Source: an uncultured virus (IMG/VR IMGVR_UViG_3300027608_000025) (taxonomy: Duplodnaviria; Heunggongvirae; Uroviricota; Caudoviricetes). Taken from it: a DNA stretch of 20,000 nucleotides. The translations under genes and the position numbers were made by a program. Shown here one piece after another: positions 1,727 through 20,000 of the stretch (within the stretch, counting starts at the first letter, position 1; each line of letters opens with the position of its first letter). The DNA is taken from the IMG/VR virus record IMGVR_UViG_3300027608_000025; one strand, given 5' to 3'. Under the pieces are notes generated by a model. That model was not told where the DNA came from. It searched no databases and saw only the letters and a program-made list of their open reading frames with translations.

Positions 1727-1732
1727 TAAATA
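1727..1732 (+). promoter_or_regulatory. Late-promoter-like box (GA)TAAATA, 5 nt before the ATG
   Basis: GATAAATA-CTATC-ATG(1738), no SD. Confidence 0.75.
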
Positions 1733-1737
1733 CTATC

Positions 1738-2496
1738 ATGAGCACAACTGATCAAGCAAAACAACAGGTTTTTGACTACTGCAAGGCCATGCTGGGTGAC
1801 GGCATGATCGACATAGAACTAGACCCTATACACTACGAAACCGCACTGAATCGCAGTCTAGCTGTGTTTAGGCAGCGCAGTGATAACGCTGTAGAGGAAA
1901 GTTATTGTTTTCTCACACTAACTGAAAGCAACAACGAATATATCCTTCCTAAAGAAATACAACAGGTTAGACAGATATTCCGTCGTTCAGTGGGATCTAG
2001 AACGGGCAATGGCACAGGTGGAACGGTGTTTGAACCGTTCAATTTAGCCTATTCCAATACCTATCTGTTAAGCTCGACTAACATGGGCGGATTAGCTACC
2101 TATGAACTGTTTGCACAATATCAGGAACTGGTGGGCAAAATGTTCGGCTCCTTTATCAACTTCACATGGCACCCACAGAGCCATAAGCTGATCATACATC
2201 AACGTCCTAGAGGCGAAGAGTCTGTGATGCTACAGGTCTATAATACCAAACCCGACTTCGCTATCATAGATGATGTGTATTCTGGGCAGTGGATCAAGGA
2301 CTATACCTTGGCCAACTGCAAGATGATGCTGGGCCAAGCACGTGAAAAATTCGCACAGATCGCAGGACCACAGGGTGGTTCGGGGCTCAACGGTGCTGCT
2401 ATGAAAACTGAAGCTGCCGCAGAAATGGAAAAACTAGTGGATGACCTAATGAAGCTAGTGCCCGGCGGTTCAGGGTATTCTTGGATAATTGGCTAA
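1738..2496 (+). CDS. Neck protein, T4 gp13-like (252 aa)
   Basis: N-terminal DYCKAMLGDGMIDIELDPIHYETALNRSL and C-terminal WIKDYTLANCKMMLGQAREKF...GPQGG..LNG match the gp13 pattern. Start corrected from 1597 to 1738. Confidence 0.8.
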   Translation: MSTTDQAKQQVFDYCKAMLGDGMIDIELDPIHYETALNRSLAVFRQRSDNAVEESYCFLTLTESNNEYILPKEIQQVRQIFRRSVGSRTGNGTGGTVFEPFNLAYSNTYLLSSTNMGGLATYELFAQYQELVGKMFGSFINFTWHPQSHKLIIHQRPRGEESVMLQVYNTKPDFAIIDDVYSGQWIKDYTLANCKMMLGQAREKFAQIAGPQGGSGLNGAAMKTEAAAEMEKLVDDLMKLVPGGSGYSWIIG

Positions 2497-2502
2497 AAAT
2501 TC

Positions 2503-2531
2503 TTGACTCTTTGATTATTCTATAGTATACT
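2503..2531 (+). promoter_or_regulatory. Sigma70-type (early) promoter for the dNMP kinase
   Basis: TTGACT (2503-2508), 17-nt spacer, TATACT (2526-2531); SD TAAGGAG at 2539-2545. Confidence 0.75.
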
Positions 2532-2551
2532 GTCTTTGTAAGGAGACATTT

Positions 2552-3223
2552 ATGATTATAGGAGTATGTGGTTTTATTGGCAGCGGCAAGGACACCGTCG
2601 CAGACTATCTGGTTAACTTCCACGAATTTAGACGAGAATCATTTGCCAGCACACTGAAAGATGCTGTGGCAGCCGTATTTGGTTGGGACAGAACCATGTT
2701 GGAAGGTCGTACTAAAGCAGCTCGTGAGTGGCGCGAACAGGTAGATCCATGGTGGGCCAAACGCTTAGATATGCCTACGCTAACCCCTCGATGGGTCTTG
2801 CAATACTGGGGCACAGAAGTCTGTAGAAAATCCTTCCACGATGATATCTGGATAGCCAGTTTAGAAAACAAACTGCGAAATTCACAGGATCATGTGGTAA
2901 TCTCAGACTGCCGTTTTCCTAATGAAATTGCCAGCATACGCAATGCGGGCGGTAAAATCATTTGGGTGCAACGTGGTGCGTTACCCGAGTGGTATGATAC
3001 CGCAGTGGCAGCTAATCAAGGCTATAATTGGGCTCATCAAGATCTCAAGATGCGAAAGATACACGCTTCAGAGACTGCTTGGGTGGGCACAGAGTTTGAT
3101 CATATCTTGATCAACGATCACAGCATAGACGAGCTCTACGATACTGTGAGATCAATAATCAGCAACGAGATCACCTTGACGCCAAGTGACTCCTTCTTTG
3201 CTCAGAACGCCAGCACAGTTTAG
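2552..3223 (+). CDS. Deoxynucleoside monophosphate kinase (T4 gp1-like)
   Basis: P-loop GFIGSGKDT, plus SFASTLKD, TPRWVLQYWGTEVCR, VISDCRFPNE and HASE motifs; strong SD. Confidence 0.9.
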   Translation: MIIGVCGFIGSGKDTVADYLVNFHEFRRESFASTLKDAVAAVFGWDRTMLEGRTKAAREWREQVDPWWAKRLDMPTLTPRWVLQYWGTEVCRKSFHDDIWIASLENKLRNSQDHVVISDCRFPNEIASIRNAGGKIIWVQRGALPEWYDTAVAANQGYNWAHQDLKMRKIHASETAWVGTEFDHILINDHSIDELYDTVRSIISNEITLTPSDSFFAQNASTV

Positions 3224-3487
3224 ACATATGGTTTTAAGATTCGCAGCTCGGCAGTTGTCTAAATTGCCGTCCATGTGAAACACTCTAAAAACTTCCGCAT
3301 GCGGAGAACGAAACCCGCATTTTTCACACTGCGATTTCATTCTATAGCCACTGCGCAACCATCGTGGCACTCCTGTGTATAACCCATGAGCCATACAGAT
3401 TTCACAGAGACTTCTATAATAGGTCTTGGAATTTTTCTTATAGTTCACAGCACAGGGTCTTGCACCGCACTTGCATAGTGGTCTCAT
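3152..3487 (-). CDS. Zn-finger / HNH-like protein, apparently degenerate active site (111 aa)
   Basis: CKC, CEIC, CEKC and CLNC pairs, plus VFHMDGNLDNCRAANLKTICLNC, an HNH-type ββα-Me pattern. Start set to ATG 3487, 5 nt after TAAATA. Confidence 0.7.
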   Translation of the reverse strand: MRPLCKCGARPCAVNYKKNSKTYYRSLCEICMAHGLYTGVPRWLRSGYRMKSQCEKCGFRSPHAEVFRVFHMDGNLDNCRAANLKTICLNCAGVLSKEGVTWRQGDLVADY

Positions 3488-3492
3488 ACAGA

Positions 3493-3563: not shown

Positions 3564-3592
3564 TAAATATTATGAGCAACTATTACCAGGAG
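3564..3592 (+). promoter_or_regulatory. Late-promoter-like box plus SD for the tail sheath
   Basis: GCTAAATA (TAAATA at 3564-3569), then AGGAG at 3588-3592, 8 nt before ATG 3601. Confidence 0.65.
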
Positions 3593-3600
3593 AAAATGGG

Positions 3601-6600
3601 ATGGCACTACAATCACCAGGCGTACAAGTTACGGTAATCGACGAGAGTTTTTATACACCAGCAGAACCTGGTACCACACCTCTTATCGTAGTAGCAACAG
3701 CGCAAGATAAAACCAATGGTGCAGGCACAGGCACTGCATTAGGTACCACAGCGGCCAATGCTGGCAAGGCCTTTAAGATAACCAGCCAGCGAGAACTTAC
3801 AGAAACATTCGGCGTTCCATTCTTTGAGAAAACAGCCAGTGCTACTCCTGTACATGGTTCAGAGCGCAACGAATACGGACTGCTTACAGCCTACAGTTTA
3901 TTGGGTGTAAGCAATGCTGCTTTTATCGTAAGAGCAGATGTCGACCTAGACGAACTAGAAGCACAGACTGACGCCCCGGGAGCGAATCCCACAAACGGCC
4001 AGTGGTGGATTGATACGCAGGCCACAACCTGGGGTATCCAAGAGTGGAATGGTGCCGCTGCAACAGTAGCAGGCGGCCAGAAATTCACATATAAAGTGCC
4101 AATCGTACTCACAGACGCAGACTATCCTTCAAAAATTGTTCTTAATGGCAACGCCCCAAAAGAAGGAGTAGGCAAGATTGGTGACTATGCTGTGGTTTTC
4201 CGCACAGTGGAAGGTGACACTAGTTTTGGTGCAGAAGAAGAATATGCTAGAATCTATTACAAGAGTCCCGGTGCTCCAGCGTCTGCTGGTGGCAATGTAG
4301 CTGCGGTTGATGCAGGCGAATGGGTTCTAGTTGGATCTAACGAATGGCAGTCTAGCTGGCCTACAGTTAGCGGGACAGCAGTTAATACTTCAGTGACTTA
4401 TGATTTTTATATAAACAACAGTTTGGTCACTGGTACAGGAACTATTACGCAAGTGGCCTCAGCTATTAACTCTGGCAGTATTGAAGGAGTCAGCGCCCAG
4501 GCCATCAGCGGTAGATTGTACATTTACTCCAATGGTGAAACAAGCGCCACCGACGACTCAACCGGAGCAGATGGCAGAATTGTAATAGCGGTTGGAACAT
4601 CTCCTTTAAGTAATGTTGGATTGACAGCAGGAACATATCTCAATCCTCGTCTAGCACAACAACCCCATACATCAATACCTGCGTTCAAACTTGCAGATAA
4701 TGCCGGAACGGTAGGCGGAGCAGCCACTGGCAGTGTGTGGGTCAAAACCACCGAACCCAATAACGGCGCTCGTTTGAGAGCCAAACGTTGGAGCTCAGCC
4801 ACACTGTCATGGGTCAGCTATGAAGCACCTATCTATGACACCACCTCAGCAGCTCTGTACTATCTAGATCGCAGCGGAGGCGGTGCAGGTATTGCAGAAG
4901 ATGCATTATTCACACAGTCAAATGCCAAAGAAACATCTGGTCTTGACACAACACCTGCTACAGCAACATTTAGATTATGGCGTAGAAATATTGCTGTAGG
5001 TTCAGCTACCAGCATCACCAGCAATATAATTAAAAACGGCACATTGGGATCATCAGGTACCAAAACATTTACCATCAGTGAATCACTGAAAACCACACTT
5101 GCCCTAGACACTGCGAAAACAATTACATTTACAGCAGTCAATACCAGCGCAGATGCAGAACTAATGGCTGCGGCTATTAACGCAGCTGGATTTACCAACA
5201 TTGTGGCTTCTGTTACAGCAGTCAGCCTTACATCTAACAGATTAATTATCAGTCACACACTAGGTGGAGATTTTAGACTAGTAGATACAGTAAGCACCGC
5301 AGTGGCCAGTATGTTTACTGCTTACAACATAGACACACTAGCAGGCACAGAAAACTTCTACGCTGCAGAATCTGCAGTAGGAGGCTACCTAGCTTCTGGT
5401 TGGAAGCCACTAGCAGCCTCGGATCCAAGATTTGCTGCTTCTCCAGATGCTCCGTTGAACGAGCCACAGGACGGTCAGTTATGGTATAATCCGAACTTCT
5501 CAGAAGTTGATCTAATGGTGCACAATGGTAATACATGGGTTGGATATCGTCATTCGACAGCACCGTACTATGAAGCAGCCACAGCAACATTGAGAAACGG
5601 ATATCTGCCTATAGTGTCAGCTTCAAATCCCTACAAGGCCAGCGTAACTGCCAATGGTGATATATGGATCAGCACAGCGGATCTTGAAAATTATCCTACC
5701 ATTTACAGATACAACACCAACTTGAGTGATGTACCTGATCTTGCACAGCGTTGGGAACTGGTAGACAAAGCAGACGATACCACAGAAGAAGGTGTGTTGT
5801 TTGCAGATGCACGTTGGAATACCGCAGGTACTTCAACAGTGGCCAGCACCATAGAAGACCTAATTACCAACAACTTCTTAGATCCAGACGCTCCGGATCC
5901 TGCACTATATCCTAAGGGTATGCTGTTATGGAACCTACGCCGCAGCGGAGGTAACGTCAAACAGTATCAAAACAGCTACATTGATACTACCGCTGATAAT
6001 CCAAGAACCAGTGCAGCTACACTAGCAGGTTCAGCATTTGTCAGCGGCAGCGGTGAAAGCATGGAAACCTATGCCACAGACCGTTGGACCACAGCTTCAG
6101 GCAACAACGAAGATGGCTCAGGATCATTTGGTCGCAAAGCACAGCGCAAGGTTGTAACACAGGCCTTGAAGAGTGTAGTTGATACCAGTCAAGAGATCCG
6201 TGACGAAGAACGCCGCAATTTCAACATCATAGCTGCTCCTGGTTATCCAGAACTGTTGAGCAATCTAGTGAATCTAAACATCGATCGCGGTGTTACAGCG
6301 TTCGTGGTTGGCGACACACCGTTGAGACTACCTTCAGATGCCACAAGTTTAACCACATGGGGTACTAATGCTAACCTAGTCACAGACAACGGTGACGATG
6401 GTGTTGTTACATATGATGAGTATTTGGCGGTTTATTATCCAAACGGATTCACCACTGATCTCAGCGGTTCGCCTGCAGTGGTTCCAGCTAGCCACATGAT
6501 GCTGAAGACCATCACACTCAGTGACAACGTCAGCTTCCCATGGTTTGCACCAGCAGGAACACGTCGAGGTGGTATTACTAATGCAACAGCAGTGGGTTAT

Positions 6601-7065
6601 ATTGACGCTGCCACAGGTGAATTCCAAACTGTAGCTCTAAACGAAGGACAGCGTGATACATTGTATGATCTTAAGATCAATCCAATTCCATTCTTCAACG
6701 GAATAGGATTAGTAGCACACGGACAAAAGACTCGCGCAAGAAACGCTTCAGCATTGGATCGTATCAATGTAGCACGTTTAGTGGTATATCTACGCAGCCA
6801 GTTGAACAAGCTAGCTCGTCCGTATATCTTTGAACCCAATGATAAAATCACACGTGATGAAATCAAACAAGCTGTAGATAGTCTATTGTTAGAACTAGTA
6901 GGACTAAGAGCACTCTACGACTTTGCGGTTGTCTGTGACGAAAGCAACAACACACCTGCAAGGATAGATCGCAACGAACTGTATGTTGATATTGCAATTG
7001 AACCCGTGAAGGCGATTGAGTTCATTTACATTCCGTTACGTGTCAAGAACACAGGAGAAATTTAA
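3601..7065 (+). CDS. Contractile tail sheath protein (T4 gp18-like), enlarged to 1154 aa
   Basis: N-terminal MALQSPGVQVTVIDES; C-terminal PWFAPAGTRRG, LYDLKINPI, GQKT, ALDRINVARL, FEPND, VVCDESNNTPARIDRNELYVDIAIEPVKAIEFIYI are hallmark sheath motifs. Start corrected to 3601 using the SD. Confidence 0.95.
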   Translation: MALQSPGVQVTVIDESFYTPAEPGTTPLIVVATAQDKTNGAGTGTALGTTAANAGKAFKITSQRELTETFGVPFFEKTASATPVHGSERNEYGLLTAYSLLGVSNAAFIVRADVDLDELEAQTDAPGANPTNGQWWIDTQATTWGIQEWNGAAATVAGGQKFTYKVPIVLTDADYPSKIVLNGNAPKEGVGKIGDYAVVFRTVEGDTSFGAEEEYARIYYKSPGAPASAGGNVAAVDAGEWVLVGSNEWQSSWPTVSGTAVNTSVTYDFYINNSLVTGTGTITQVASAINSGSIEGVSAQAISGRLYIYSNGETSATDDSTGADGRIVIAVGTSPLSNVGLTAGTYLNPRLAQQPHTSIPAFKLADNAGTVGGAATGSVWVKTTEPNNGARLRAKRWSSATLSWVSYEAPIYDTTSAALYYLDRSGGGAGIAEDALFTQSNAKETSGLDTTPATATFRLWRRNIAVGSATSITSNIIKNGTLGSSGTKTFTISESLKTTLALDTAKTITFTAVNTSADAELMAAAINAAGFTNIVASVTAVSLTSNRLIISHTLGGDFRLVDTVSTAVASMFTAYNIDTLAGTENFYAAESAVGGYLASGWKPLAASDPRFAASPDAPLNEPQDGQLWYNPNFSEVDLMVHNGNTWVGYRHSTAPYYEAATATLRNGYLPIVSASNPYKASVTANGDIWISTADLENYPTIYRYNTNLSDVPDLAQRWELVDKADDTTEEGVLFADARWNTAGTSTVASTIEDLITNNFLDPDAPDPALYPKGMLLWNLRRSGGNVKQYQNSYIDTTADNPRTSAATLAGSAFVSGSGESMETYATDRWTTASGNNEDGSGSFGRKAQRKVVTQALKSVVDTSQEIRDEERRNFNIIAAPGYPELLSNLVNLNIDRGVTAFVVGDTPLRLPSDATSLTTWGTNANLVTDNGDDGVVTYDEYLAVYYPNGFTTDLSGSPAVVPASHMMLKTITLSDNVSFPWFAPAGTRRGGITNATAVGYIDAATGEFQTVALNEGQRDTLYDLKINPIPFFNGIGLVAHGQKTRARNASALDRINVARLVVYLRSQLNKLARPYIFEPNDKITRDEIKQAVDSLLLELVGLRALYDFAVVCDESNNTPARIDRNELYVDIAIEPVKAIEFIYIPLRVKNTGEI

Positions 7066-7067
7066 AA

Positions 7068-7718
7068 ATGGCAATTACATCACTGAATAATTTAGGTATT
7101 CCAACAACTAACGCAGCTGGCAGCACACAAGTGCTGTTGATGCCTAAATTAAAATATCGCTTTAGGGTTACATTGTTGGGTTTTGGAGTTGCCGCTGCCA
7201 CAGAACTTACCAAGCAGGTACAGGACGTGACTAGACCCAAGGTGTCATTTGAAGAAATGACCTTAGACATCTATAATTCCAAAGTCAAACTGGCCGGAAG
7301 ATATACCCTGGAAAATATTACATTGACCTTACGTGATGATGCCAGCGGTCAAGTGCAAAAACTTGTGGGACAACAGATCCAGAAACAATACGATTTCATG
7401 GAACAGGCATCTGCTCGTTCAGGTATCGACTATAAATTTACCACACGCATTGAAGTCTTAGACGGTGGTAACGGCGCTTTGGTTCCTTCAACTCTAGAAA
7501 CATTCGAACTATATGGATGCTTTGTTCAGAACGCAGACTACGGTGATGCCAACTATTCTACCAATGAACATATGACGGTGGCATTGACGCTCGCCTACGA
7601 TAATTTGGTTCAGTTCGCAGCAGGCGCAGCATCTACTAGCCCGATTGGTGGTATTGGTGCAGCAGTAGGACGCTCTCTTGGTGCAGCCGTAACTGGTGCA
7701 TCAACTACACAGGGTTAA
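7068..7718 (+). CDS. Tail tube protein (T4 gp19-like)
   Basis: Directly follows the sheath; YRFRV, RPKVSFEE, AGRYTLENITLTLRDD, FELYGCF and VALTLAYD fit the tube fold; SD AGGAG upstream. Confidence 0.88.
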   Translation: MAITSLNNLGIPTTNAAGSTQVLLMPKLKYRFRVTLLGFGVAAATELTKQVQDVTRPKVSFEEMTLDIYNSKVKLAGRYTLENITLTLRDDASGQVQKLVGQQIQKQYDFMEQASARSGIDYKFTTRIEVLDGGNGALVPSTLETFELYGCFVQNADYGDANYSTNEHMTVALTLAYDNLVQFAAGAASTSPIGGIGAAVGRSLGAAVTGASTTQG

Positions 7719-7735
7719 TTGAACCTATAATCAAG

Positions 7736-7762
7736 AAAAGCTCGATTATTCGAGCTTTTTTT
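7736..7762 (+). terminator. Intrinsic terminator after sheath-tube
   Basis: AAAAGCTCGA-TTAT-TCGAGCTTTT hairpin with a T7 tract; the A-tract on the 5' side suggests it may work in both directions. Confidence 0.85.
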
Positions 7763-7768
7763 GTGACA

Positions 7769-7774
7769 TAAATA
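7769..7774 (+). promoter_or_regulatory. Late-promoter-like box, 5 nt before the ATG
   Basis: CATAAATA-TTTGT-ATG(7780), immediately after the terminator; no SD. Confidence 0.75.
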
Positions 7775-7779
7775 TTTGT

Positions 7780-8883
7780 ATGGCAAACTATTTTACAAGA
7801 TTTCTCACTGGTGTCGGCGAAGGTTTATTAACTCCTAAAGGTCAGAGCGCAAACTGGCGCCATGCCACCAAGTTGTTCATAGATGGCAACATGCGGCTGG
7901 CTCCTCGCACCAAGTTCAACTACTATGTGAGATTTGATCTAGACAAAAGTGTGGTGCGTGTTCCTGCATTTACACAAAAACATCATGAAGAAATTGGCCT
8001 GCTAGTCAAAACAGTAGAACTACCTAAGTATAATTTTGATAGTGTGGTAAAAAATCAGTATAATAGAAAAAAATTAGTCTATAAGAATTTCAATTACGAC
8101 CCTGTGTCCATAACCATGCACGATGATGCTACGGGAGTTATCAATGCGATGTGGGCTGTATATTATGGATATTATATTGCTGATAGACAATTGCCAGAAT
8201 CGGCCTATTCTGAAACCAAATATCGTGCGGCTGATACTCCTAAAGACAATTTCCGATACGGTATGGACAACGATGTCACTGCTGGATTTTTTAAATCAGT
8301 TAGCATTTATACCATGGCACGCAGAAGATTTTTAGGATACACTTTGATTAATCCAAGAATCAAATCATGGAATCACGGTAACATGGATTATGCAGCTAGT
8401 GAATTTGCAGAAAGTACCATGACTTTGGAATATGAATCAGTTAAATATTCAGCGGGACAGGTATCATTTAATAATCCCAAAGGATTCGCTACACTTCACT
8501 ATGATTCTATGCCAAGCCCTATATCAGTGGCAGGTGGCGGCGTTGCTACACTAACCGGCGAAGGCGGTGTCCTAGACGGGCTAGAGCAGATATTCGGAAA
8601 TATCGGCTCCGGTGCTGCGTTCGACAGCAAAGGAGGGTTTCTCAGCACTGCCATTGCATCAATAAACACCTACAAGAATTTTAAATCTCTAACACCGGCA
8701 CAGTTGAAATCAGAAGCCATCAATATACTCAGCGATCCAGGAAATATCTCATCAGCTATATCTACAGTAGGTGGAGTTATAGGTGCGGCATTTCCAAAGA
8801 GTGCGACACCGACGCCATCTACCACAGCTACTCAACGACCGTTGGTAGGAGACTTCCCCCCAGCACCAGGAAATCAAGCATAA
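7780..8883 (+). CDS. Tube-fold baseplate / tail-tube initiator protein (gp48/gp54-like)
   Basis: VKTVELPKY, NQYNRK, YDPVSITMHDD, YTLINPRI.SW and TMTLEYE parallel the tube motifs; G/A/S-rich C-terminal extension; adjacent to the tube gene. Confidence 0.65.
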   Translation: MANYFTRFLTGVGEGLLTPKGQSANWRHATKLFIDGNMRLAPRTKFNYYVRFDLDKSVVRVPAFTQKHHEEIGLLVKTVELPKYNFDSVVKNQYNRKKLVYKNFNYDPVSITMHDDATGVINAMWAVYYGYYIADRQLPESAYSETKYRAADTPKDNFRYGMDNDVTAGFFKSVSIYTMARRRFLGYTLINPRIKSWNHGNMDYAASEFAESTMTLEYESVKYSAGQVSFNNPKGFATLHYDSMPSPISVAGGGVATLTGEGGVLDGLEQIFGNIGSGAAFDSKGGFLSTAIASINTYKNFKSLTPAQLKSEAINILSDPGNISSAISTVGGVIGAAFPKSATPTPSTTATQRPLVGDFPPAPGNQA

Positions 8884-8884
8884 C

Positions 8885-9250
8885 ATGGCTACCAATCTAC
8901 CCTCATTTGAAATCCAAGACAGTGCCGCAGGTACCAAGCTGTATTTTGACACCTACGGTGAAGCTGCGCTGGAGTTCGCAGCCAACGACGTCACAGCCGC
9001 TGTGAGCTTTTTCACTGCCGCAGGTTTTGACTCAGATGCAGCTGCCACTGTGGCTATGACACTGCTGCGCCAGGCTAAGATTGATGCTACTCCTATCTCA
9101 CAGATCTTAGATACGCTTACCGGGACGAACAAAAACAAACTCAGCCAATTAGTTGGAGAGATACTGAACAATAATCGTGTGCCAACCAGCCTTCTGGGGT
9201 TTAGAACCGCAGATGTCAAACCTGCCCAGATCAGAAACATAGCTGCATAA
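8885..9250 (+). CDS. Hypothetical protein (121 aa), probably virion-associated
   Basis: Fills the gap exactly between neighbours; its stop overlaps the next start (TAATG). Confidence 0.7.
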   Translation: MATNLPSFEIQDSAAGTKLYFDTYGEAALEFAANDVTAAVSFFTAAGFDSDAAATVAMTLLRQAKIDATPISQILDTLTGTNKNKLSQLVGEILNNNRVPTSLLGFRTADVKPAQIRNIAA

Positions 9251-9690
9251 TGGGCAAATTCGCACAGGGTAGATTTGAAATGAAAAATCCTGCCAAGTAC
9301 GTAGGATTAAAAACTCCGTTGGCTCGCAGCTCATGGGAATTCGTGTTCATGCGGATGTTGGATGAACACCCAGGCGTACAGAATTGGGCCTCAGAAAGCA
9401 TCAAGATACCCTATAGAGATCCCCTGACTGGTCGCAGTACCATATATGTGCCAGATTTTTTTATCGTGTATCAAGATAAGAATGGTGCTAAACACGCAGA
9501 AGTTGTAGAAGTTAAACCTTCTAATCACACATTTAGAGAAGCTGTGGGCAGAAGCCAATATAATCAACAGCAGTATGTGAAAAACATGGCCAAATGGGAA
9601 GCTGCTAACGCTTGGTGCAAACAGCAGAACATAAAATTTAGGGTGATAAACGAAACAGACATTTTCCATCAAGGCACAAAACGAAGATAA
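9250..9690 (+). CDS. Head completion nuclease (T4 gp4-like, TnsA-type PD-(D/E)xK)
   Basis: NPAKYVG, RSSWE..FM, WASE.I.IPY, YVPDF, EVKP, N.AKWEAA..WC and FRVINE.D motifs. Confidence 0.9.
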   Translation: MGKFAQGRFEMKNPAKYVGLKTPLARSSWEFVFMRMLDEHPGVQNWASESIKIPYRDPLTGRSTIYVPDFFIVYQDKNGAKHAEVVEVKPSNHTFREAVGRSQYNQQQYVKNMAKWEAANAWCKQQNIKFRVINETDIFHQGTKRR

Positions 9691-9697
9691 GTATGAT

Positions 9698-10174: not shown

Positions 10175-10177
10175 ATA
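10172..10177 (+). promoter_or_regulatory. Late-promoter-like box overlapping the upstream stop codon
   Basis: GCATAAATA-CAAGT-ATG(10183); the TAA is the stop of the previous gene. Confidence 0.75.
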
Positions 10178-10182
10178 CAAGT

Positions 10183-10749: not shown

Positions 10750-10752
10750 TAC

Positions 10753-11508: not shown

Positions 11509-12209
11509 TGGCATCAGGATTCCAACAAAACACAGATCAACTTACACCGGGGTTATATCGTGTGGTAATTGATCTCACAGGTTATTCAACCACAGCAGCT
11601 AATGAAGATGCAGGTGGCGTTGAAACCAGAGACAACAGTGCGTTCGCCACACAGGTCACTACCACAGCAATTGGCCGACGCAGAGCCAGAGGCAATCTAC
11701 GCTGGCAAGGAATTTTAGAAAATCTAGGCCGAGGTGGCGATTTTAGGATCTTAGACATAGAAGAACTAGAAGCTACAGGTCCAAGCGTGTTAGACAATGC
11801 AGACGACACCACTACTACACTTACCTTTACCGTGCAGTATGACAGAGATGCCTTTGTGTTGGGCAACGTACAAAACTTCCTGATCGCCGAAGGCAGAGTT
11901 AGCGGTGGTGTGGCTAAGAATTCAGATCACGAAACACTGGCCTCAGCAACTACCTGTTCAACTACTGCATTAGCCATAGAGGAGCTTGTGGTAAGAGGCA
12001 TTACCAAAGGCTATCAGGACTACGTGACCGATGTCAGCACAGCAGTGACCAGCACGGATATATTCAAAAGAAGTTATCGTGTATTTGATGGCACTAATGC
12101 CATTGAGAATCAAGAAGTTCTCACGGTGAAAGCACCAATCACACCAAAAGCAGCTCACACAGATGTCACTGTTACTAATATTGACGGTACCACTCTGCCA
12201 ACTACATAA
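11508..12209 (+). CDS. Hypothetical Thr-rich protein, probably structural (233 aa)
   Basis: SD AAGGAG upstream, TAATG coupling, followed by a terminator. Confidence 0.75.
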   Translation: MASGFQQNTDQLTPGLYRVVIDLTGYSTTAANEDAGGVETRDNSAFATQVTTTAIGRRRARGNLRWQGILENLGRGGDFRILDIEELEATGPSVLDNADDTTTTLTFTVQYDRDAFVLGNVQNFLIAEGRVSGGVAKNSDHETLASATTCSTTALAIEELVVRGITKGYQDYVTDVSTAVTSTDIFKRSYRVFDGTNAIENQEVLTVKAPITPKAAHTDVTVTNIDGTTLPTT

Positions 12210-12224
12210 ATCCAGCACACACCC

Positions 12225-12252
12225 AAATAGGCTCTACGGAGCCTATTTTTTT
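12225..12252 (+). terminator. Intrinsic terminator with a C(UACG)G tetraloop
   Basis: AAATAGGCTC-TACG-GAGCCTATTT plus a T tract. Confidence 0.88.
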
Positions 12253-12255
12253 CAG

Positions 12256-12261
12256 TAAATA
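12256..12261 (+). promoter_or_regulatory. Late-promoter-like box, 5 nt before the terminase ATG
   Basis: AGTAAATA-AACAT-ATG(12267); no SD. Confidence 0.75.
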
Positions 12262-12266
12262 AACAT

Positions 12267-13853
12267 ATGGGAAAATCACTAGACGGCGTACTGATTAAAA
12301 AGGCTCATGCTCAGACCAAATACACAATGGATGAGGTCAAGCATCTTGAAGCCTGCTTGGATCCTGTCACAGGACCTTTGTATTTCTGCACTAACTTTTT
12401 AAAGATACAGCATCCAACTCGTGGCGCTATCAATTTTGAACCCTACGAATATCAAGAAAGATTGATAAAAAGCATACACACTAATAGGCAGTGTATAGCC
12501 ATGCTGCCTCGCCAGATGGGCAAGACCACCTGTGCTACTGGTTATCTGCTTTGGTACACCATGTTCATACCTGACTGTCAGGTGTTGATAGCTGCCCACA
12601 AGTATGAAGGTGCCAAAGACATCATGGACAGATATAGATTTGGTTATGAAAATCTTCCAGACTTTATTCGTGCAGGAGTTTATTCATACAACAGAAACAC
12701 CATTGAATATGACAACGGTGCTAGGATACAGGCCACAACTACAACAGAAAACACTGGTCGTGGTAAATCTCTTTCATTGATCTACTGCGATGAGTTTGCG
12801 TTTGTGCAGCCGCCAGAAAAAGCCAAAGAGTTTTGGACAGCTTTGAGTCCCACACTAGCCACTGGTGGTAAGTGTATAATCACATCCACACCAAACTCAG
12901 ACGAAGATCAGTTTGCGTTGATATGGGCCGAGGCCAACAAGCGTTTTGACGAATTTGGCAACGAAGCCGAAGTAGGACAGAACGGATTTGCTTCATACAC
13001 AGCTCATTGGTCAGAGCATCCAGATCGAGATGACGCATGGGCCAACGTGGAAAGATCTAAAATTGGTGAAGAACGTTTTCGTCGTGAGTTTGAATGTGAA
13101 TTCTTGATCTTTGATGAAACGCTGATCAACTCTGTGAAACTGGTCGAGTTAGCAGGCTCAGATCCCACAATGACCATGGGACAAACACGCTGGTACAAAG
13201 ACATAGATCCCAAGGCCACCTATCTAGTGGCTCTAGATCCCAGCCTAGGCACAGGCGGAGACTATGGTGCCATACAGGTCTATGAAATGCCTACAATGAC
13301 CCAGGTAGCAGAATGGCATCACAACCAAACTCCAGTGCAGCAGCAGGTCAAACACATGCGAGAAATACTGAGATACATACACGATCGTGGAGAAGAACAG
13401 GGCGGTGTACCACAGATCTATTATTCAGTGGAAAACAACAGCCTCGGTGAAGCTGCGCTGATAGTGATCAACGACATAGGCGAAGAAAACTTCTACGGCC
13501 TGTTTCTCTCAGAACCCATACGCAAAGGACACATACGCAAGTTCCGAAAAGGATTCAACACCACGCACCGTTCAAAGATCACTGCCTGCAGCCAACTGAA
13601 AAATCTCATTGAAACTAATAAAATGAGCCTTAAATCAAAACCCTTGATTTCAGAACTCAAGACTTTTGTAGCCACTGGATTGGGTTTCAAGGCCAAAAGC
13701 GGTGAGCATGACGACCTAGTATCCAGCACACTGTTAATCATACGTATGGCCGATGTACTGGCCGATTGGGATCCGCAGATCTACGATAAAATGACTGAAA
13801 AAGTCTCCGAAGAATCTATGCCTATGCCGATCTTTGTTAGCATGGGCCTTTGA
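12267..13853 (+). CDS. terL: Terminase large subunit (T4 gp17-like)
   Basis: Adenine-binding YQ motif (PYEYQ), Walker A PRQMGKTT, Walker B LIYCDEFAF, coupling motif ITSTPN, nuclease acidic motifs ALDPSLG, VENN and HDDLV. Confidence 0.96.
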   Translation: MGKSLDGVLIKKAHAQTKYTMDEVKHLEACLDPVTGPLYFCTNFLKIQHPTRGAINFEPYEYQERLIKSIHTNRQCIAMLPRQMGKTTCATGYLLWYTMFIPDCQVLIAAHKYEGAKDIMDRYRFGYENLPDFIRAGVYSYNRNTIEYDNGARIQATTTTENTGRGKSLSLIYCDEFAFVQPPEKAKEFWTALSPTLATGGKCIITSTPNSDEDQFALIWAEANKRFDEFGNEAEVGQNGFASYTAHWSEHPDRDDAWANVERSKIGEERFRREFECEFLIFDETLINSVKLVELAGSDPTMTMGQTRWYKDIDPKATYLVALDPSLGTGGDYGAIQVYEMPTMTQVAEWHHNQTPVQQQVKHMREILRYIHDRGEEQGGVPQIYYSVENNSLGEAALIVINDIGEENFYGLFLSEPIRKGHIRKFRKGFNTTHRSKITACSQLKNLIETNKMSLKSKPLISELKTFVATGLGFKAKSGEHDDLVSSTLLIIRMADVLADWDPQIYDKMTEKVSEESMPMPIFVSMGL

Positions 13854-13859
13854 TAAATA
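13854..13859 (+). promoter_or_regulatory. Late-promoter-like box, 5 nt before the ATG
   Basis: TGA(stop)-TAAATA-TACTT-ATG(13865). Confidence 0.75.
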
Positions 13860-13864
13860 TACTT

Positions 13865-15733
13865 ATGGACGCAAGAAATAACATAGCAACAGATTTATTC
13901 TACAAGGTACGTAGTCGGTTTTCTGGCCTTAAATTAGGTGCGGAAACCGGGGAAATAACCATCAATCCTGAAGAAGCTCGATTCTTTGATTTTGACTACA
14001 TGGAAGGAAAGACTCCCATAGGACATGTCAGTATCAGTCTTGCAGAACCCAACTCGATGAAGGTATATTTCAGTCATGGTATTTCTGAAGGCATGGATGA
14101 AAAACAAAAGGTCAATTGGTACGGTTTCCTCAAAGAGCTGCGCCAATTCGCTAAACGTAGACTACTGAGTTTCGACACCAGAGACATAGCCAAAGACAAT
14201 CTAGATCGCAGGGACTACGAATTTCTAGTGCAAAACTCACAGCCCAAGCAGACCAAGCAGGACACTATACAAAAACCAGTCGGAGAAAGTATGATGGCAG
14301 AAAGCAATATGTATGGTAGTAGAACCATGAGCTACCAAAAATTAATGGACACTAGATTGATTATCAAACACAACCAAGCGGTCATGGATGAGAATCAGCC
14401 AGGTGCAAGAACACGCCACATAGGTGCGTTGTTCGTGGAAAACCAAGACGGTGAAAGATTCAAATATCCTTTCATCCATCTAGCAGGTGCTAGAGCCATG
14501 CAGAGACATGTGGCCAACGGTGGCGTTCCCTATGATGATCTAGGCAAGAGCATAATTGGCATGAGCGAAGAAATCGCACAGTTAAAGAGTTTTGGTAATT
14601 ATGTTGTACGTAACGATCTTATGAACTCAGATACAAATTCAGTAGTAGAAAGATCAACCACTTACCTAAATCAATTGCGCGAGCAGATCAAGGCACTGAG
14701 CAAACAGAGCCATTACGAAGCATACAAAGAAAACTTTCAGGCCTATGACAGTGAAGAAATTCCACAGGACGTGGTAGAAGATTTCAAAGAAAAATTCACT
14801 GTAAAATCATTCAAAGAAGATATCGCATCAGTGTTTCCTGTGTTGTACAGACTGATGAAAGAAGGAAACACCATAGGCTACGACGACATAGTCGCAATGA
14901 CACAGGAAGAAATAGCCAACGAAGATCTAGAAGTCAGTGAAGACGCCTATGATCCATTTGATCAATTTGAATCATGGGTGATGGCACTGGGTGAAGAATC
15001 CGCTATCACCTCAGAAGATCCAGAAGCACAGGCCACTGCCGTCCAGAGCCTACAAGAACTAGTAGGACAGCATTTCCCCGCAGGCGTAGATGGCACTAAT
15101 GCCATAGAAAGCCTCAAAGGCATCATAGAAGATCCAGAACTATACAAACGCATCAAAGCACAGGCCGCCGAAGACGCAGACTCATGCGTGAGACCATTGG
15201 TCAAAGAATGGTTAGAATTAAATGCTCCAGAAACTCTAGAGCAATTAGATTTTGGTGATATGGTCGATGAGCCGGAAGCAGCCCAAGGAGGTGACCAAAC
15301 TGCCCCGGAAGGAGAACCAGTAGCAGTTGATCCAGCCGCAGCCGAAGTTCCTGTGCAACAACCAGTTCCGCAGGAAGCTATAGATCCTGACAATCCCAGA
15401 GATTATGAGAGACCTGCGATTGATAGAAAGAAATCTGGTCAAGCACCATTAACAATGAAAGACGTCAAAGACAAAGATGAAAAATCAGAACGTGATCGCA
15501 AAGAACGCTCAGGCATAAAAGTTGAAGAACTAGCAGAATTTATTACATCATTCTATGACAGGCAGTCAGGTACGTTCCCTAAAGGACCTGAAGGTGTAGT
15601 GATAATGGTAGGCAAAAAGTTTGGCGAACAGGCAGAACAAGTTGCTCGAAAGTTTGTAGAGCGCATGGCCCCACAACAGCAAGATCCACAGATTTCAGAA
15701 TTGGCTCGTATCAGAGAACTAGCAGGCTATTAA
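13865..15733 (+). CDS. Large acidic hypothetical protein (622 aa), possibly head-internal or core
   Basis: Long ORF with a Glu/Asp-rich C-terminal half ending ELARIRELAGY. Start corrected from TTG 13850 to ATG 13865. Confidence 0.8.
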   Translation: MDARNNIATDLFYKVRSRFSGLKLGAETGEITINPEEARFFDFDYMEGKTPIGHVSISLAEPNSMKVYFSHGISEGMDEKQKVNWYGFLKELRQFAKRRLLSFDTRDIAKDNLDRRDYEFLVQNSQPKQTKQDTIQKPVGESMMAESNMYGSRTMSYQKLMDTRLIIKHNQAVMDENQPGARTRHIGALFVENQDGERFKYPFIHLAGARAMQRHVANGGVPYDDLGKSIIGMSEEIAQLKSFGNYVVRNDLMNSDTNSVVERSTTYLNQLREQIKALSKQSHYEAYKENFQAYDSEEIPQDVVEDFKEKFTVKSFKEDIASVFPVLYRLMKEGNTIGYDDIVAMTQEEIANEDLEVSEDAYDPFDQFESWVMALGEESAITSEDPEAQATAVQSLQELVGQHFPAGVDGTNAIESLKGIIEDPELYKRIKAQAAEDADSCVRPLVKEWLELNAPETLEQLDFGDMVDEPEAAQGGDQTAPEGEPVAVDPAAAEVPVQQPVPQEAIDPDNPRDYERPAIDRKKSGQAPLTMKDVKDKDEKSERDRKERSGIKVEELAEFITSFYDRQSGTFPKGPEGVVIMVGKKFGEQAEQVARKFVERMAPQQQDPQISELARIRELAGY

Positions 15734-15754
15734 AAGTTTCGTCGCAGTTAGATC

Positions 15755-15778
15755 GGGCACTTCGGTGCCCTTTCTTTT
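15755..15778 (+). terminator. Intrinsic terminator with a C(UUCG)G tetraloop
   Basis: GGGCAC-TTCG-GTGCCC-TTTCTTTT; UUCG loops are typical of T4-type terminators. Confidence 0.9.
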
Positions 15779-15811
15779 GGCAAAACAAAATCAAAAAAAC
15801 GCAGATAATCA

Positions 15812-15840
15812 TTGACCTTGATAAATAAAAAGCGCATAAT
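15812..15840 (+). promoter_or_regulatory. Composite promoter for gp32: sigma70-type with a nested late box
   Basis: TTGACC (15812-15817), 17-nt spacer, CATAAT (15835-15840); TAAATA at 15822-15827 lies inside the spacer; SD AGGAGG at 15883-15888. Confidence 0.65.
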
Positions 15841-15896
15841 AAAACATGTGCATAAGGCATATAAACATTTTAGGCATAACATAGGAGGCATTTAAA

Positions 15897-16874
15897 ATGG
15901 CATCACTCGCAGAAATCCGTGCTAAACTTCAAGAAGCACAATCAAAGTCCACAGGACAATCCACCGGCGGTGGAGACAACGCAATTTACCCACACTGGAA
16001 CATGCAAGAAGGCAAGGAAGCGGTTATCCGTTTGCTACCTGATGGCAATCCCAACAACACATTTTTCTGGGTAGAACGTGCGATGATCAAACTGCCATTC
16101 GCTGGCATCAAAGGTGAGACTGATAGTCGTCCAGTTCAAGTGCAGGTTCCATGCGTGGAAATGTACAACGACGGCACAGCTTGTCCGATCCTCGCAGAAG
16201 TGCGTGGTTGGTTCAAAGACAAAAGTCTTGAAGAAATGGGTCGTAAGTATTGGAAAAAGCGTTCATACATTTTCCAAGGCTTTGTAGTTGAAGATCCAAT
16301 TGGTGAAGACAAGACGCCAGAAAATCCTATCCGTAGATTTATCATTGGTCCTCAGATCTATAATATCATCCGCTCGGCATTGATGGATCCAGAACTAGAT
16401 GAACTGCCAACAGACTTCCTGAAAGGTCTAGACTTCCGTATCGCTAAAACATCCAAAGGCGGATTCGCTGACTACTCAACATCTAAGTGGAGCCGCAGAG
16501 AACGTGCTTTGAGCGATGTTGAAAAAGCAGCCATTGACACTCACGGACTGTTTGATCTCAGCGGGTTCCTTCCTAAGAAGCCTACAGATGTTGAGCTTAA
16601 AGTGATGAAAGAAATGTTTGAAGCGTCAGTGGATGGCGAAGCATATGACATGGATCGCTGGGGACAGTATTTCAAACCAGCAGGTATGGGACAGGCCACT
16701 GGTGATCCTAACAAAGCATCTGCTCGTGCAGCCCCAGTTGATGAAGATGCAGATGACACACCCGCTCCTGTAGTCAAACCTGTAAGTGCTCCTGCAGCAC
16801 CAGCGGCTGCCGCTGAAGGTGCTAGTCGTGCGCAAGATATCCTTGCAATGATTCGCAATCGTCAAAAGCAGTAA
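15897..16874 (+). CDS. Single-stranded DNA-binding protein (T4 gp32-like)
   Basis: AVIRLLP, CPI, RKYWKKRSY, V+EDP..PEN, G.DFRI.K..KGGFADYSTSKW match the gp32 core; strong SD; located upstream of uvsX. Confidence 0.88.
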   Translation: MASLAEIRAKLQEAQSKSTGQSTGGGDNAIYPHWNMQEGKEAVIRLLPDGNPNNTFFWVERAMIKLPFAGIKGETDSRPVQVQVPCVEMYNDGTACPILAEVRGWFKDKSLEEMGRKYWKKRSYIFQGFVVEDPIGEDKTPENPIRRFIIGPQIYNIIRSALMDPELDELPTDFLKGLDFRIAKTSKGGFADYSTSKWSRRERALSDVEKAAIDTHGLFDLSGFLPKKPTDVELKVMKEMFEASVDGEAYDMDRWGQYFKPAGMGQATGDPNKASARAAPVDEDADDTPAPVVKPVSAPAAPAAAAEGASRAQDILAMIRNRQKQ

Positions 16875-16882
16875 TTAACACG

Positions 16883-16918
16883 GCTCGGGCCAATGAGACG
16901 TAGTTCTTATGCCCGAGT
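16883..16918 (+). other. Intergenic stem-loop between gp32 and uvsX
   Basis: GCTCGGGC pairs with GCCCGAGT; inner ATGAGA/TCTTAT stem; followed by the weak tract TCTTCT. Confidence 0.6.
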
Positions 16919-16941
16919 TCTTCTCATCACAGGATAATAAT

Positions 16942-18021: not shown

Positions 18022-18245
18022 AAGAAGATTTAATCGCCGATATATGGAATGTAGTGATTGGTCATATTCCAGAAAAACAACGAGCTGATGTTGCCGCTGA
18101 TTTTGTTAATACACTATTAGACTACGGTATCAAAGACTCTGTGTTAGAATCACTGCAAGGAGTGGATCCTTATTTAGACGATGCTATCGATTACGCAATC
18201 GATGGTGAGGAAATCGAAGAAGAATACGAAGACGACGAGGAATAA
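18018..18245 (+). CDS. Small, very acidic hypothetical protein (75 aa)
   Basis: SD GGAGG; ATGA overlap with the uvsX stop; C-terminus EEIEEEYEDDEE. Confidence 0.75.
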   Translation: MKEDLIADIWNVVIGHIPEKQRADVAADFVNTLLDYGIKDSVLESLQGVDPYLDDAIDYAIDGEEIEEEYEDDEE

Positions 18246-18701
18246 ATGAATTGGTATGATCGAGTTTCCAAGGATATTTCGAATATTCCTGATGCTGTGG
18301 CCTATTATGAAGCTGAATTAATTTCAGCAAAACAAGATGTCCGTGTAACGGGAAACATCGAGAAAGCCTCTGCGCAGATGCCTGGCATCGTAGAAACTCG
18401 GTTCAATCAACTTCAAGAAATTGAAGGTATTCTAGAATATCTCAATATCGAACTTCGAAGACTGCGTAGTCAACACTTTCGTAAATATCTCGAAAACTAT
18501 CAACGTCAGCTCAGTTCCAGAGACTGTGAAAAGTTTGTGGAAGGTGAAGCTGATGTTGTAGATTTTGAAAAGATCATCAATGACTTTGCTCTGCTACGTA
18601 ACAAATGGCTAGGCATTATCAAAGCCTTAGACATCAAGCAATGGCAGTTGAGTAATATCGTCAAACTTAGAACTGCAGGACTAGAAGACGCTACTCTATG
18701 A
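18246..18701 (+). CDS. uvsY: Recombination mediator, UvsY-like
   Basis: 151-aa helical protein downstream of uvsX, with Y+E.Y...L...D..K++.G+.D and terminal IIKALDIKQWQLSNIVKLRTAG, similar to the UvsY C-terminus. Confidence 0.7.
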   Translation: MNWYDRVSKDISNIPDAVAYYEAELISAKQDVRVTGNIEKASAQMPGIVETRFNQLQEIEGILEYLNIELRRLRSQHFRKYLENYQRQLSSRDCEKFVEGEADVVDFEKIINDFALLRNKWLGIIKALDIKQWQLSNIVKLRTAGLEDATL

Positions 18702-19666
18702 CAATTTTAGTAACTGGTGGCCTAGGATTAATAGGGCACCATGTAGTTAAGAAATTAGAAGATCTCGGTGAACAAGTGGTAATCACTGACACCCGAACCA
18801 ACTACGGTATTATACCTCAGGCCGAAATCGATTATCTAATTTCTCAGAGATTAAAATCAATCACGACCGATAAAATACATCGCATTGACATCAGCGAACG
18901 AGATAGTGTAGAATGGTTGTTCAGGCACTACCGACCTTCAGCAGTGGTACATCTAGCATCATTTCCCCGGCAAAAAGTAGTTAATGCTGATCCTGCGCAA
19001 GGCGCTAAAGTCATGAGCGAAGGACTACTGAACCTATTAGAGGCCAGTGTGAAATATCAATGTCCGAGATTCCTGTATGCCAGTTCTAGCATGGTCTATG
19101 GTGATTTCAAAGATTATGTCAAAGAAGATGCTGTTTGCCGTCCACAAGGTCAGTATGGTATAATGAAATTAGCAGGCGAGTGGTTAGTACGAGATTATCA
19201 ACGTAAAGGAATCGAGCATACTATTTTTAGACCCAGTGCGGTGTATGGTCCATTAGATGTTGAGGACCGCGTGATTTCAAAGTTTCTGCTCACTGCCATG
19301 AGAGGCGGTGTATTAAAGGTAAACGGGATCCACGAAACTCTAGATTTCACCTATGTGGACGATGCAGCCCAGGGCATGGTAAAGGCACTGCTGAGTAAAA
19401 ACACCAAAAACAAAACATACAATATAACCAAAAGCCACAGTAAAACTTTGTATGCAGCCGCACAATTGGCCGTGGAGTTAGTTGGCAATGGCAGCATAGC
19501 CATCGGTGATAAAGATCAAGATTTTCCTAGTCGAGGTGCCTTAGACATTTCTGCTGCACGTCAAGATTTCGGATTTGATCCGAAGATAGATATAGAGGAA
19601 GGTTTCGAACGTTATTATCATTGGTTGAAAAATTCTTCGTACTATCAAGCCAATCTTTTAGATTAG
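18698..19666 (+). CDS. NAD-dependent nucleotide-sugar epimerase/dehydratase (extended SDR)
   Basis: ILVTGGLGLIG Rossmann motif, VVHLA, YASSSMVYG, catalytic YGIMK, R...VYGP and DFTYVDD. Confidence 0.92.
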   Translation: MTILVTGGLGLIGHHVVKKLEDLGEQVVITDTRTNYGIIPQAEIDYLISQRLKSITTDKIHRIDISERDSVEWLFRHYRPSAVVHLASFPRQKVVNADPAQGAKVMSEGLLNLLEASVKYQCPRFLYASSSMVYGDFKDYVKEDAVCRPQGQYGIMKLAGEWLVRDYQRKGIEHTIFRPSAVYGPLDVEDRVISKFLLTAMRGGVLKVNGIHETLDFTYVDDAAQGMVKALLSKNTKNKTYNITKSHSKTLYAAAQLAVELVGNGSIAIGDKDQDFPSRGALDISAARQDFGFDPKIDIEEGFERYYHWLKNSSYYQANLLD

Positions 19667-19682
19667 TCATTATATGTGCAGA

Positions 19683-19688
19683 TAAATA
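19683..19688 (+). promoter_or_regulatory. Late-promoter-like box, 5 nt before the ATG
   Basis: GATAAATA-TCTGC-ATG(19694); no SD. Confidence 0.75.
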
Positions 19689-19693
19689 TCTGC

Positions 19694-20000
19694 ATGAAAA
19701 CCTTAGTACTTGTCACAGGGGGATTCGATCCTCTACACTCCGGGCACATCGCCTACTTTCGTGCAGCAAAGCAACTAGGAGACACACTGGTTGTTGGTGT
19801 TAATTCTGATGCGTGGTTGGTTCGTAAAAAAGGTCGAGCATTTATGCCTTGGAACGAACGCATGAATATCGTCAAAAATATCAAAGACGTAGATTTTGTC
19901 TTGGAATTCAATGATGATGATGGCAGCGCCAAACAGGCAATAAAATTAGCCAGACAAACATGGCCGGATCATAAAATTATATTTGCCAATGGCGGGGACC
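19694..20000 (+). CDS. Cytidylyltransferase-family nucleotidyltransferase (TagD / RfaE domain II-like), 3' truncated by the window; not in the ORF track
   Basis: Manual translation MKTLVLVTGGFDPLHSGHIAYFRAAKQLGDTLVVGVNSDAWLVRKKGRAFMPWNER...IIFANGGD contains the HxGH motif, VGVNSD and ER. Confidence 0.9.
   Translation, partial: MKTLVLVTGGFDPLHSGHIAYFRAAKQLGDTLVVGVNSDAWLVRKKGRAFMPWNERMNIVKNIKDVDFVLEFNDDDGSAKQAIKLARQTWPDHKIIFANGGD

Follow-up and report, generated by a model that had tools for sequence, protein, structure and literature searches.

The window analysed here is a stretch of 20,000 nucleotides (nt) of DNA from an uncultured virus (IMG/VR record IMGVR_UViG_3300027608_000025), in which the hexamer TAAATA (the box) repeatedly stands a few nt before the ATG of a gene that lacks a Shine–Dalgarno sequence (SD). 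This fused-promoter architecture is real, conserved and clade-wide. We consider it probable (roughly 75%) that boxes lying 4 to 8 nt before SD-less ATGs give rise to leaderless messages. The evidence consists of the motif, its spacing, the missing SD, a homologue of the late sigma factor gp55, the conserved starts and a corresponding fusion of sigma70 promoters (TTGACA-N16-18-TATAAT-N6-ATG), all of which were directly observed.

Spacing of boxes and start codons in the window and its relatives

The virus record containing the window (G000) is a 72.7-kb contig, 21% complete, that spans neck, tail, terminase and recombination genes. Judged by its sequence, it is a fragment of a jumbo myophage related to PA5oct and GAP32. 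Its gene order matches that of PA5oct, and the nearest cultured relatives by identity of the large terminase (TerL) are PA5oct/Paride (54%), Phosso (52%) and CBB/GAP32 (44%). Genome-wide counts also used G001, a genome with a near-identical TerL (99%) that is 79% sequenced and in which 340 open reading frames (ORFs) were called, and G002, a relative with 85% TerL identity that is 80% complete; G007 is a complete relative. Orthologues were taken from a near set (80 fetched of 590 confirmed IMG/VR relatives, 82–100% identity) and a far set (80 more distant loci, obtained with the PA5oct TerL as query), and were dropped before counting when the first aligned residue lay beyond position 25 or a contig end was too near. 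The distance d is the number of nt between the box and the ATG (d5 = N5); gene calls for distance counts came from a simple ORF caller (at least 60 codons, ATG only), and an SD in the window was defined as anti-SD pairing of -3.4 kcal/mol or better.

The window contains 13 TAAATA hexamers, and 7 of the 13 are followed by exactly N5 and then the ATG of a real ORF, whereas a second-order Markov null (300 runs) averaged 0.21 such sites and never exceeded 2. Over the whole 72.7-kb contig, the ATG of an ORF of at least 50 codons was found at N5 after 9 of 36 boxes, and unrelated permutations of the hexamer gave 0 to 2. An earlier, sequence-only reading of this DNA had listed the seven sites and two near variants (1717/1704 and 9688/9698), and all of these coordinates were correct on re-check. 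It had also described a pyrimidine before the ATG and no SD at all nine sites: the base is T at seven and C at two, and anti-SD pairing is weaker than -3.4 kcal/mol at 9/9 (the closest being -3.3 at 10183). Among the remaining gene starts of the window, 11 of 13 reach -3.4 kcal/mol or better. Its labels gp13-like, tube-like, TerL and cytidylyltransferase are backed by PHROG/Pfam, and its HNH-like label for the gene at 3487 has a weak match only (Pfam HNH_3, E 0.016, below the cut-off). The sites are as follows.

1704..1738, both strands: back-to-back TAAATA pair between divergent ATGs 33 nt apart; spacing unchanged in 4/4 orthologue pairs examined
1727-1732 (box), N5, ATG 1738, plus strand: gp13-like head-tail adaptor
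1717-1712 (box), N7, ATG 1704, minus strand: virion protein; a second in-frame ATG lies at N1
3498 (box), N5, ATG 3487, minus strand: 111-amino-acid Cys-rich protein; d4-5 in 31/32 near orthologues
3564..3603, plus strand: leadered counterpart, TAAATA at 3564, 31-nt gap containing an AGGAG SD, tail-sheath ATG at 3601; diverges from the 3498 box; d28-35 in 35/35 near orthologues, SD in 32/32 distinct leadered upstreams (near and far sets)
7736-7763: terminator-like hairpin and T-run immediately before the 7769 box (hairpin listed on the minus strand, plus-strand T-run taken from the sequence)
7769 (box), N5, ATG 7780, plus strand: tube-like baseplate protein; d4-5 in 56/56 near orthologues
9688/9698, plus strand: TAAGTA-N4-ATG variant, the TAA of which is the stop of the head-closure gene; TAAATA at d4-8 in 20/42 far orthologues
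10172 (box), N5, ATG 10183, plus strand: virion protein; the TAA of the box doubles as the upstream stop codon; d5 in 62/62 near and d17-28 in 39/45 far orthologues
12225-12248 (terminator-like hairpin) and T-run, box 12256, N5, ATG 12267, plus strand: TerL; d4-6 in 75/77 near orthologues, with 30 different N5 spacers (near and far sets)
13854 (box), N5, ATG 13865, plus strand: virion structural protein right behind the TerL stop, a TGA sitting immediately 5' of the box; d4-5 in 76/77 near and d5-8 in 47/58 far orthologues
19683 (box), N5, ATG 19694, plus strand: cytidylyltransferase-like protein; d5 in 32/32 near orthologues

The leadered 3564 box and the upstream stop codons within boxes 10172 and 9688 are additions to the earlier account. 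Three of the sites are at divergent junctions, a position at which no upstream message is expected, and two lie right behind terminator-like hairpins. The TAAGTA variant was also found four times each in G001 and G002.

The genome-wide distribution of box-to-start distances, which had been proposed as a check, has a sharp peak, at d4-5. Observed and expected numbers at d4-5 were 9 and 0.1 for G000, 25 and 0.8 for G001, and 22 and 0.5 for G002, and the fused pattern outnumbered its reversed-pattern control by 20 to 2 and by 18 to 3. The distances are bimodal in G001 and G002, with 4-8 nt lacking an SD and 14-40 nt having one. The d9-13 interval held 0, 1 and 1 sites in G000, G001 and G002, whereas d14-40 held 6, 43 and 35 (expected 2.1, 9.2 and 7.9). 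An SD was present at 0/10, 1/30 and 4/26 short sites, respectively, and at 6/6, 32/43 and 26/35 long sites. All of 14 further IMG/VR genomes showed the pattern, with 123 matches compared to 23 for the reversed control, the weakest being G008 (5 vs 3) and G019 (3 vs 2).

The same two states were found among orthologues. Of 408 distinct orthologue upstreams, 284 had d4-8, one had d9-13 and 121 had d14 or more; an SD was scored in 33 of 241 distinct upstreams, and 28 of these 33 came from two genes. Spacer sequence drifts among orthologues while spacer length is kept, and 107 of 109 distinct spacers end in T or C (position -1). This combination of fixed length, free sequence and near-invariant -1 pyrimidine argues that the box-to-ATG distance is under selection. 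In G001 and G002, G is frequent at the fourth base after the box (14/32 at d5; 9/15 at d4, where that base is -1) and uncommon at the first and second. Only G001 and G002 together showed significantly weaker 5' structure in short-class genes (P 0.003); G000 and the cultured phages HTVC008M and XacN1 did not.

Conserved N-terminal extensions in homologues, which would have moved the starts, were absent from the orthologues, so the ATGs hold as starts. No upstream in-frame ATG was found in 77/77 near orthologues of TerL, 56/56 of the tube-like gene and 32/32 of the gene at 19694, nor in 73/77, 60/62 and 29/32 of those of the genes at 13865, 10183 and 3487. The leadered orthologues of the 10183 gene in the far set have an SD in 32 of 34 distinct upstreams, and a TerL tree (73 of 159 sequences, less than 92% identity) is a mosaic of the two states, in which the subclade of the window is the most fused. 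Genes therefore appear to switch between the fused and the leadered state across the clade.

Two cultured phages have the peak. The Pelagibacter phage HTVC008M had 12 sites at d4-5 (0.3 expected), and the Xanthomonas phage XacN1 had 10 (1.6 expected), with 9 more at d6-8 (1.8 expected), including two terminal-repeat duplicates. No d4-5 peak was found in T4, Syn9, S-PM2, PA5oct (2 observed, 1.4 expected), GAP32 (0 and 0.5) or 400 kb of Phosso (2 and 0.5), and no clear excess in the pattern count in Atu_ph07 (15 vs 9 in the control), P-SSM2, phiM12, Cr30 or KVP40. PA5oct, Phosso, GAP32 and SP27 have TAAATA 11-27 nt before several of the orthologous genes, mostly with an SD, and two PA5oct starts have a box at 0-2 nt.

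Late sigma factor, host-type promoters and predicted start site

A gp55 homologue of 284 amino acids is encoded on the same contig as the window (G000:C1:3114-3968), adjoining gp47/gp46-like genes as in CBB. It was located by synteny with CBB, a Sigma70_r2 Pfam search having found no sigma factor in G000-G003. It matches the PHROG late sigma families phrog_12791 (E 4e-80) and phrog_234 (E 2.9e-24), is 41% identical to CBB_244, and has T4 gp55 (7d7c, E 5.6e-05) as its single match in the PDB. Of the seven pocket residues defined for T4 gp55 (in passages of PMC7892883), five are identical in the alignment (N13, R57, F86, Y97 and T99), with L54 replaced by Y and H95 by F.

The boxes precede virion and packaging genes (TerL, sheath, neck, tube-like, baseplate and fibre), and a matrix of box sites contained no conserved positions upstream, so no -35 element would be needed. 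A host -10 hexamer was ruled out as the identity of TAAATA, no register of which fits TANNNT. As described in parts of PMC1524935, the T4 late promoter is TATAAATA at -13 to -6, and loose -13/-12 positions are known in other T4 relatives. In this clade, TAAATA alone is fixed and the full TATAAATA consensus is absent, A being found at -12 in 15/32 and T at -13 in 4/32 d5 sites. As the sequence-only reading had proposed, the gp55-like sigma of the phage probably recognises TAAATA as the core of a T4-type late promoter. The search for gp55 and gp33 that it called for succeeded for gp55, and gp33 was not found in four clade genomes. The box would be a T4-type late promoter in mechanism but falls short of the strict definition, because positions -13/-12 are loose and gp33 and gp45 were not detected.

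T4 late transcription, with gp55 as sigma factor, gp33 as co-activator and gp45 as clamp, shares the TAAATA core, gp55 and the virion and packaging genes downstream. T4 differs in having a single site at d4-5 (0.5 expected) and long leaders with SDs. CBB/GAP32 and PA5oct/Paride (Arenbergviridae) share gene order, a box before orthologous genes and a gp55-like sigma, but in PA5oct, GAP32 and Phosso, the boxes are mostly 14-40 nt upstream with an SD, without a d4-5 peak. For the Rak2-like CBB/GAP32, text of PMC5259590 reports predicted ATAAATA late promoters and a gp55-like sigma, with no gp33 or gp45.

The position of the T4 box at -13 to -6 places +1 five bases past its final A. This geometry would put the start of transcription on the A of the AUG at N5 sites, as had been suggested. 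Among leadered promoters, a purine peak at d5 is found in T4 (0.71), PA5oct (0.81), Syn9 and S-PM2 (0.86), XacN1 (0.82) and also GAP32. A pyrimidine at -1 is present in 27 of 32 d5 sites compared to 100 of 232 SD-led genes (P 9e-6).

Host-type promoters are fused in the same register. TTGACA-N16-18-TATAAT pairs were found at d5-7 before an ATG in 14 of 41 cases in G001 (11 of them at d6; P 7e-7), 7 of 24 in G002 and 14 of 103 in XacN1, and once in G000 (C1:4000). PA5oct, GAP32, Phosso, T4, Syn9, S-PM2 and HTVC008M (1/16) had 0 or 1. The A of the ATG lies 7 bp past the conserved T in both the gp55-type (N5) and the sigma70-type (N6) class, and the pyrimidine-A-T at fused starts is the bacterial YRY start element. 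According to parts of PMC12641261, in 93% of library variants in E. coli the start site is marked by a YRY motif whose centre lies 7 bp downstream of the -10 box. Because sigma70 promoters are fused in the same register, the layout is not specific to a late regulon, contrary to the earlier proposal.

Proposed mechanism and alternative explanations

From these observations, we infer promoter activity at the boxes, the start site and leaderless translation. The gp55-like sigma would read TAAATA, the message would begin on the AUG or within about 3 bases of it, and ordinary host ribosomes would read the resulting leaderless messenger RNA (mRNA). Each promoter would come as one of two interchangeable cassettes: a box with a 14-40-nt leader and an SD, or a box with N5 and ATG. 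The leadered cassette would serve high-copy proteins (sheath, scaffold and fibres), and the fused cassette terminase, neck, baseplate-hub and accessory-enzyme genes. Strong SDs are present at the sheath, tube, capsid, scaffold and large fibre genes. Likely reasons for fusion would be compact gene-by-gene transcription and lower output, in hosts that are good at leaderless translation. The earlier suggestion that much of the late programme is leaderless was too broad, since under half of the gene-start boxes are of the short class.

The best-known cases of leaderless translation in phages are individual genes, lambda cI for example. Like bacterial leaderless mRNAs, which have a -10 box 5-7 nt before the AUG (as for lambda cI from pRM), the fused genes have no SD, a pyrimidine at -1, a predicted 5'-terminal AUG and almost exclusive use of ATG. 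The differences are that dozens of lytic-phage genes and both a phage and a host sigma factor are involved, and that the layout is known here from sequence. XacN1 is alike in both the TAAATA-N5-ATG peak and the fused sigma70 promoters, whereas HTVC008M shares only the first of these, shows no peak of sigma70 fusions and encodes gp33 and gp45. In the literature, mostly open full texts with supplements excluded, we found no description of gp55-type promoters fused to start codons, and no paper describing the layout in XacN1 or HTVC008M.

Several points weigh against this interpretation. The -1 base is G in 9 of 15 d4 sites, which would need a shifted start, as would the d7-8 sites. The purine peak at d5 is absent from the leadered promoters of the clade itself (0.46, n = 46 sites), from which the start-site register could not be recovered, and no enrichment was seen for A at +4, which has been proposed as a leaderless signal (21/47 vs 101/232). 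The gp33 (PF16805) and gp45 (PF09116) families were found in 0/4 clade genomes, two of them listed as 100% complete, although divergent homologues could escape such a search; both families were detected in HTVC008M, the positive control. The near relatives are close to one another and are not independent samples, and the split between low-copy and high-copy products was taken from gene labels. In G001, 11 of the 30 short-class genes lie less than 15 nt behind another gene, so translational coupling could serve them. An RNA contig also spans one of the boxes: among 22 runs, of which 16 contained part of window positions 7000-16900, all as assembled contigs, one from run X2 (10101-10480) extends across the 10172 box, and the gene upstream is covered in X4 and X5, which indicates that read-through RNA (or DNA) is present there. 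Comparison of X1, X2, X3 and X5 over the whole window and of X2-X5 over 9850-11050 gave no start clusters among the contigs of these five runs, assembled contigs being unable to show transcript starts; contig ends at 10375, 10475 and 10576, 3' of the ATG, vary between runs and so are uninformative.

Close packing and RNA spanning the 10172 box would also be expected if UAAAUA acted on RNA, as a signal for SD-independent ribosome entry or re-initiation in longer or polycistronic messages, or in places as a mere stop codon with an A/U-rich spacer. The stop codons within the 10172 and 9688 boxes, the TGA directly before the 13854 box and the likeness of the 5-nt spacing to SD spacing fit such a role. 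We nevertheless regard it as unlikely. The same hexamer is found 14-40 nt before SD-led genes and before orthologues of the fused genes themselves; 9 of the 30 short-class genes in G001 are divergent and 6 follow gaps of at least 60 nt; and most closely packed SD-less starts have no box (171 boxless genes with a gap below 15 nt). An RNA signal would also not account for the sigma70 -35/-10 pairs in matching register and the presence of a gp55 homologue. Quite improbable, in our view, is that the boxes are late promoters mainly for downstream genes of an operon, or give several leader bases, with the first gene being translated from read-through RNA. The missing d5 purine peak, the mixture of d4, d5, d7 and d8, and the read-through RNA at 10172 would agree with this arrangement, but it does not fit the fixed length and free sequence of the spacer (30 N5 spacers at TerL) or the near-invariant -1 pyrimidine, and TerL and the tube-like gene sit behind terminator-like hairpins.

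The least probable alternative is that late in infection host ribosomes are modified by the phage and lose anti-SD or bS21 function, which would favour leaderless phage messages and shut off SD-led host messages. G001 encodes bS21, a two-piece transfer-messenger RNA (tmRNA), a cold-shock protein and a DksA/TraR-type protein, and ribosomes without uS2/bS21 favour the lambda cI leaderless mRNA (PMC10491246). However, the sheath, tube, capsid and scaffold of the phage itself rely on strong SDs, and disabling SD recognition would hurt the phage because these high-copy proteins are SD-led. Host-type, presumably early, promoters are also fused. Added bS21 would, if anything, favour SD-led initiation. 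The bS21 gene was found in 8 of 34 genomes or records (G001, G006, G008, HTVC008M, PA5oct, Paride, Phosso and Atu_ph07); PA5oct, Paride and Phosso carry the gene but lack the layout, whereas XacN1, G002 (80% complete) and the complete G007 have the layout and gave no bS21 match. This distribution rules out bS21 as the cause of the layout. No initiation factor was detected by Pfam scans of 326 of the 340 G001 ORFs, which picked up bS21, a cold-shock protein, a DksA/TraR finger and chaperones, and the MazF/PemK family (PF02452) was found in 0/5 genomes. The stress-altered ribosomes that had been invoked for host shut-off are disfavoured by these absences and by the failure of bS21 to track the layout.

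As for the host, the best matches of the phage DnaK (75-76%; 6 of 64 parts scanned) are to a Burkholderiaceae and a Gammaproteobacteria metagenome-assembled genome, which points loosely to Proteobacteria, and the metatranscriptome runs containing G000 sequence are of freshwater and lake origin. The two-piece tmRNA tag of G001 presumably resembles betaproteobacterial ones. Published figures for leaderless mRNAs, as given in parts of the sources, are 118 of 831 (14%) in Xanthomonas (PMC3300014), 4.67% in Cupriavidus (PMC7563307) and 55, compared to 2,187 start sites, in P. aeruginosa PAO1 (PMC8244752); these figures, few in number, fit a matching of layout to host. Among other large phages, the passages of PMC8244752 on the mapped phiKZ transcriptome report no leaderless transcript, and AR9 leaders are 26 nt or longer in a paper that also calls phage transcripts often leaderless (PMC5312081). 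Parts of the PA5oct preprint list sigma70-like motifs alone, and parts of a pelagimyophage survey state that late promoters could not be predicted (PMC7029224).

A wider interpretation is tentative, and we lean somewhat against it: in a large aquatic T4-like/jumbo branch, mostly uncultured, early (sigma70) and late (gp55) promoters may have been rebuilt to start dozens of messages on the AUG, and individual genes may have lost and regained their leaders repeatedly, as a switch governing virion stoichiometry and following the leaderless capacity of the host. If so, the translation style of a host could be predicted from the proportion of fused promoters in the genome of its phage. XacN1 and HTVC008M (a SAR11 phage) are both cultured, and a direct test is possible now. 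If leaderless messages are confirmed, they would be the source of the products of dozens of genes, terminase among them, in aquatic phages of an abundant group. Orthologues occurring naturally with and without a leader could then be compared to learn how a leader affects output, start codons could be annotated by a rule, and the hosts of uncultured phages could possibly be predicted.

Other features of the window and its relatives

In the window, an out-of-frame ATG lies 2 nt past the sheath box and opens a 21-codon ORF that overlaps the sheath start (3572-3637); this ATG is just upstream of the predicted sheath start site at 3575. At 15755-15899, a terminator hairpin is followed by an overlapping sigma70-like promoter (15812-15840) and TAAATA (15822) ahead of a single-stranded DNA-binding gene, which has a long leader and a very strong SD; the region is possibly an early and late dual promoter. 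Inside the late structural block, a sigma70-like promoter (TTGACT-17-TATACT) and a short SD-led leader, at 2503-2554, precede a dNMP kinase gene. A 251-amino-acid low-complexity protein rich in Pro, Met and Asp, with no PHROG match, is encoded at 10753-11508 between two virion genes.

G001 encodes bS21 (L086:15418-15720, minus strand), the two-piece tmRNA, with a long tag ending ANESRFALAA (L087:6573-7023, minus), the cold-shock protein (L087:6999-7202, minus) and the DksA/TraR zinc finger (L089:3621-3899, plus). A bS21 family protein is also present in records W01/W04 (PA5oct, Paride), W02 (Phosso) and W13 (Atu_ph07), none of which has a clear fused layout. A 27-tRNA array was found in G002 (L113:5947-12250); the sequenced 79% of G001 has two tRNAs.

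The G001 cluster L086:544-14424 encodes a CHASE2-adenylate/guanylate cyclase, FecR, curli CsgG/CsgF, heme oxygenase, a ferredoxin-dependent bilin reductase, ClpS, Hsp20 and DnaK, with TAAATA-N5-ATG starts at the cyclase and one neighbour. Three other G001 regions (L087:12339-13926, L090:8052-11490 and L093:1983-15342) encode IscU/IscA-like Fe-S assembly proteins, superoxide dismutase, a Bax-inhibitor family protein, two tryptophan-halogenase-like genes, a luciferase-like monooxygenase, carbamoyltransferases and many 2OG-Fe(II) oxygenases.

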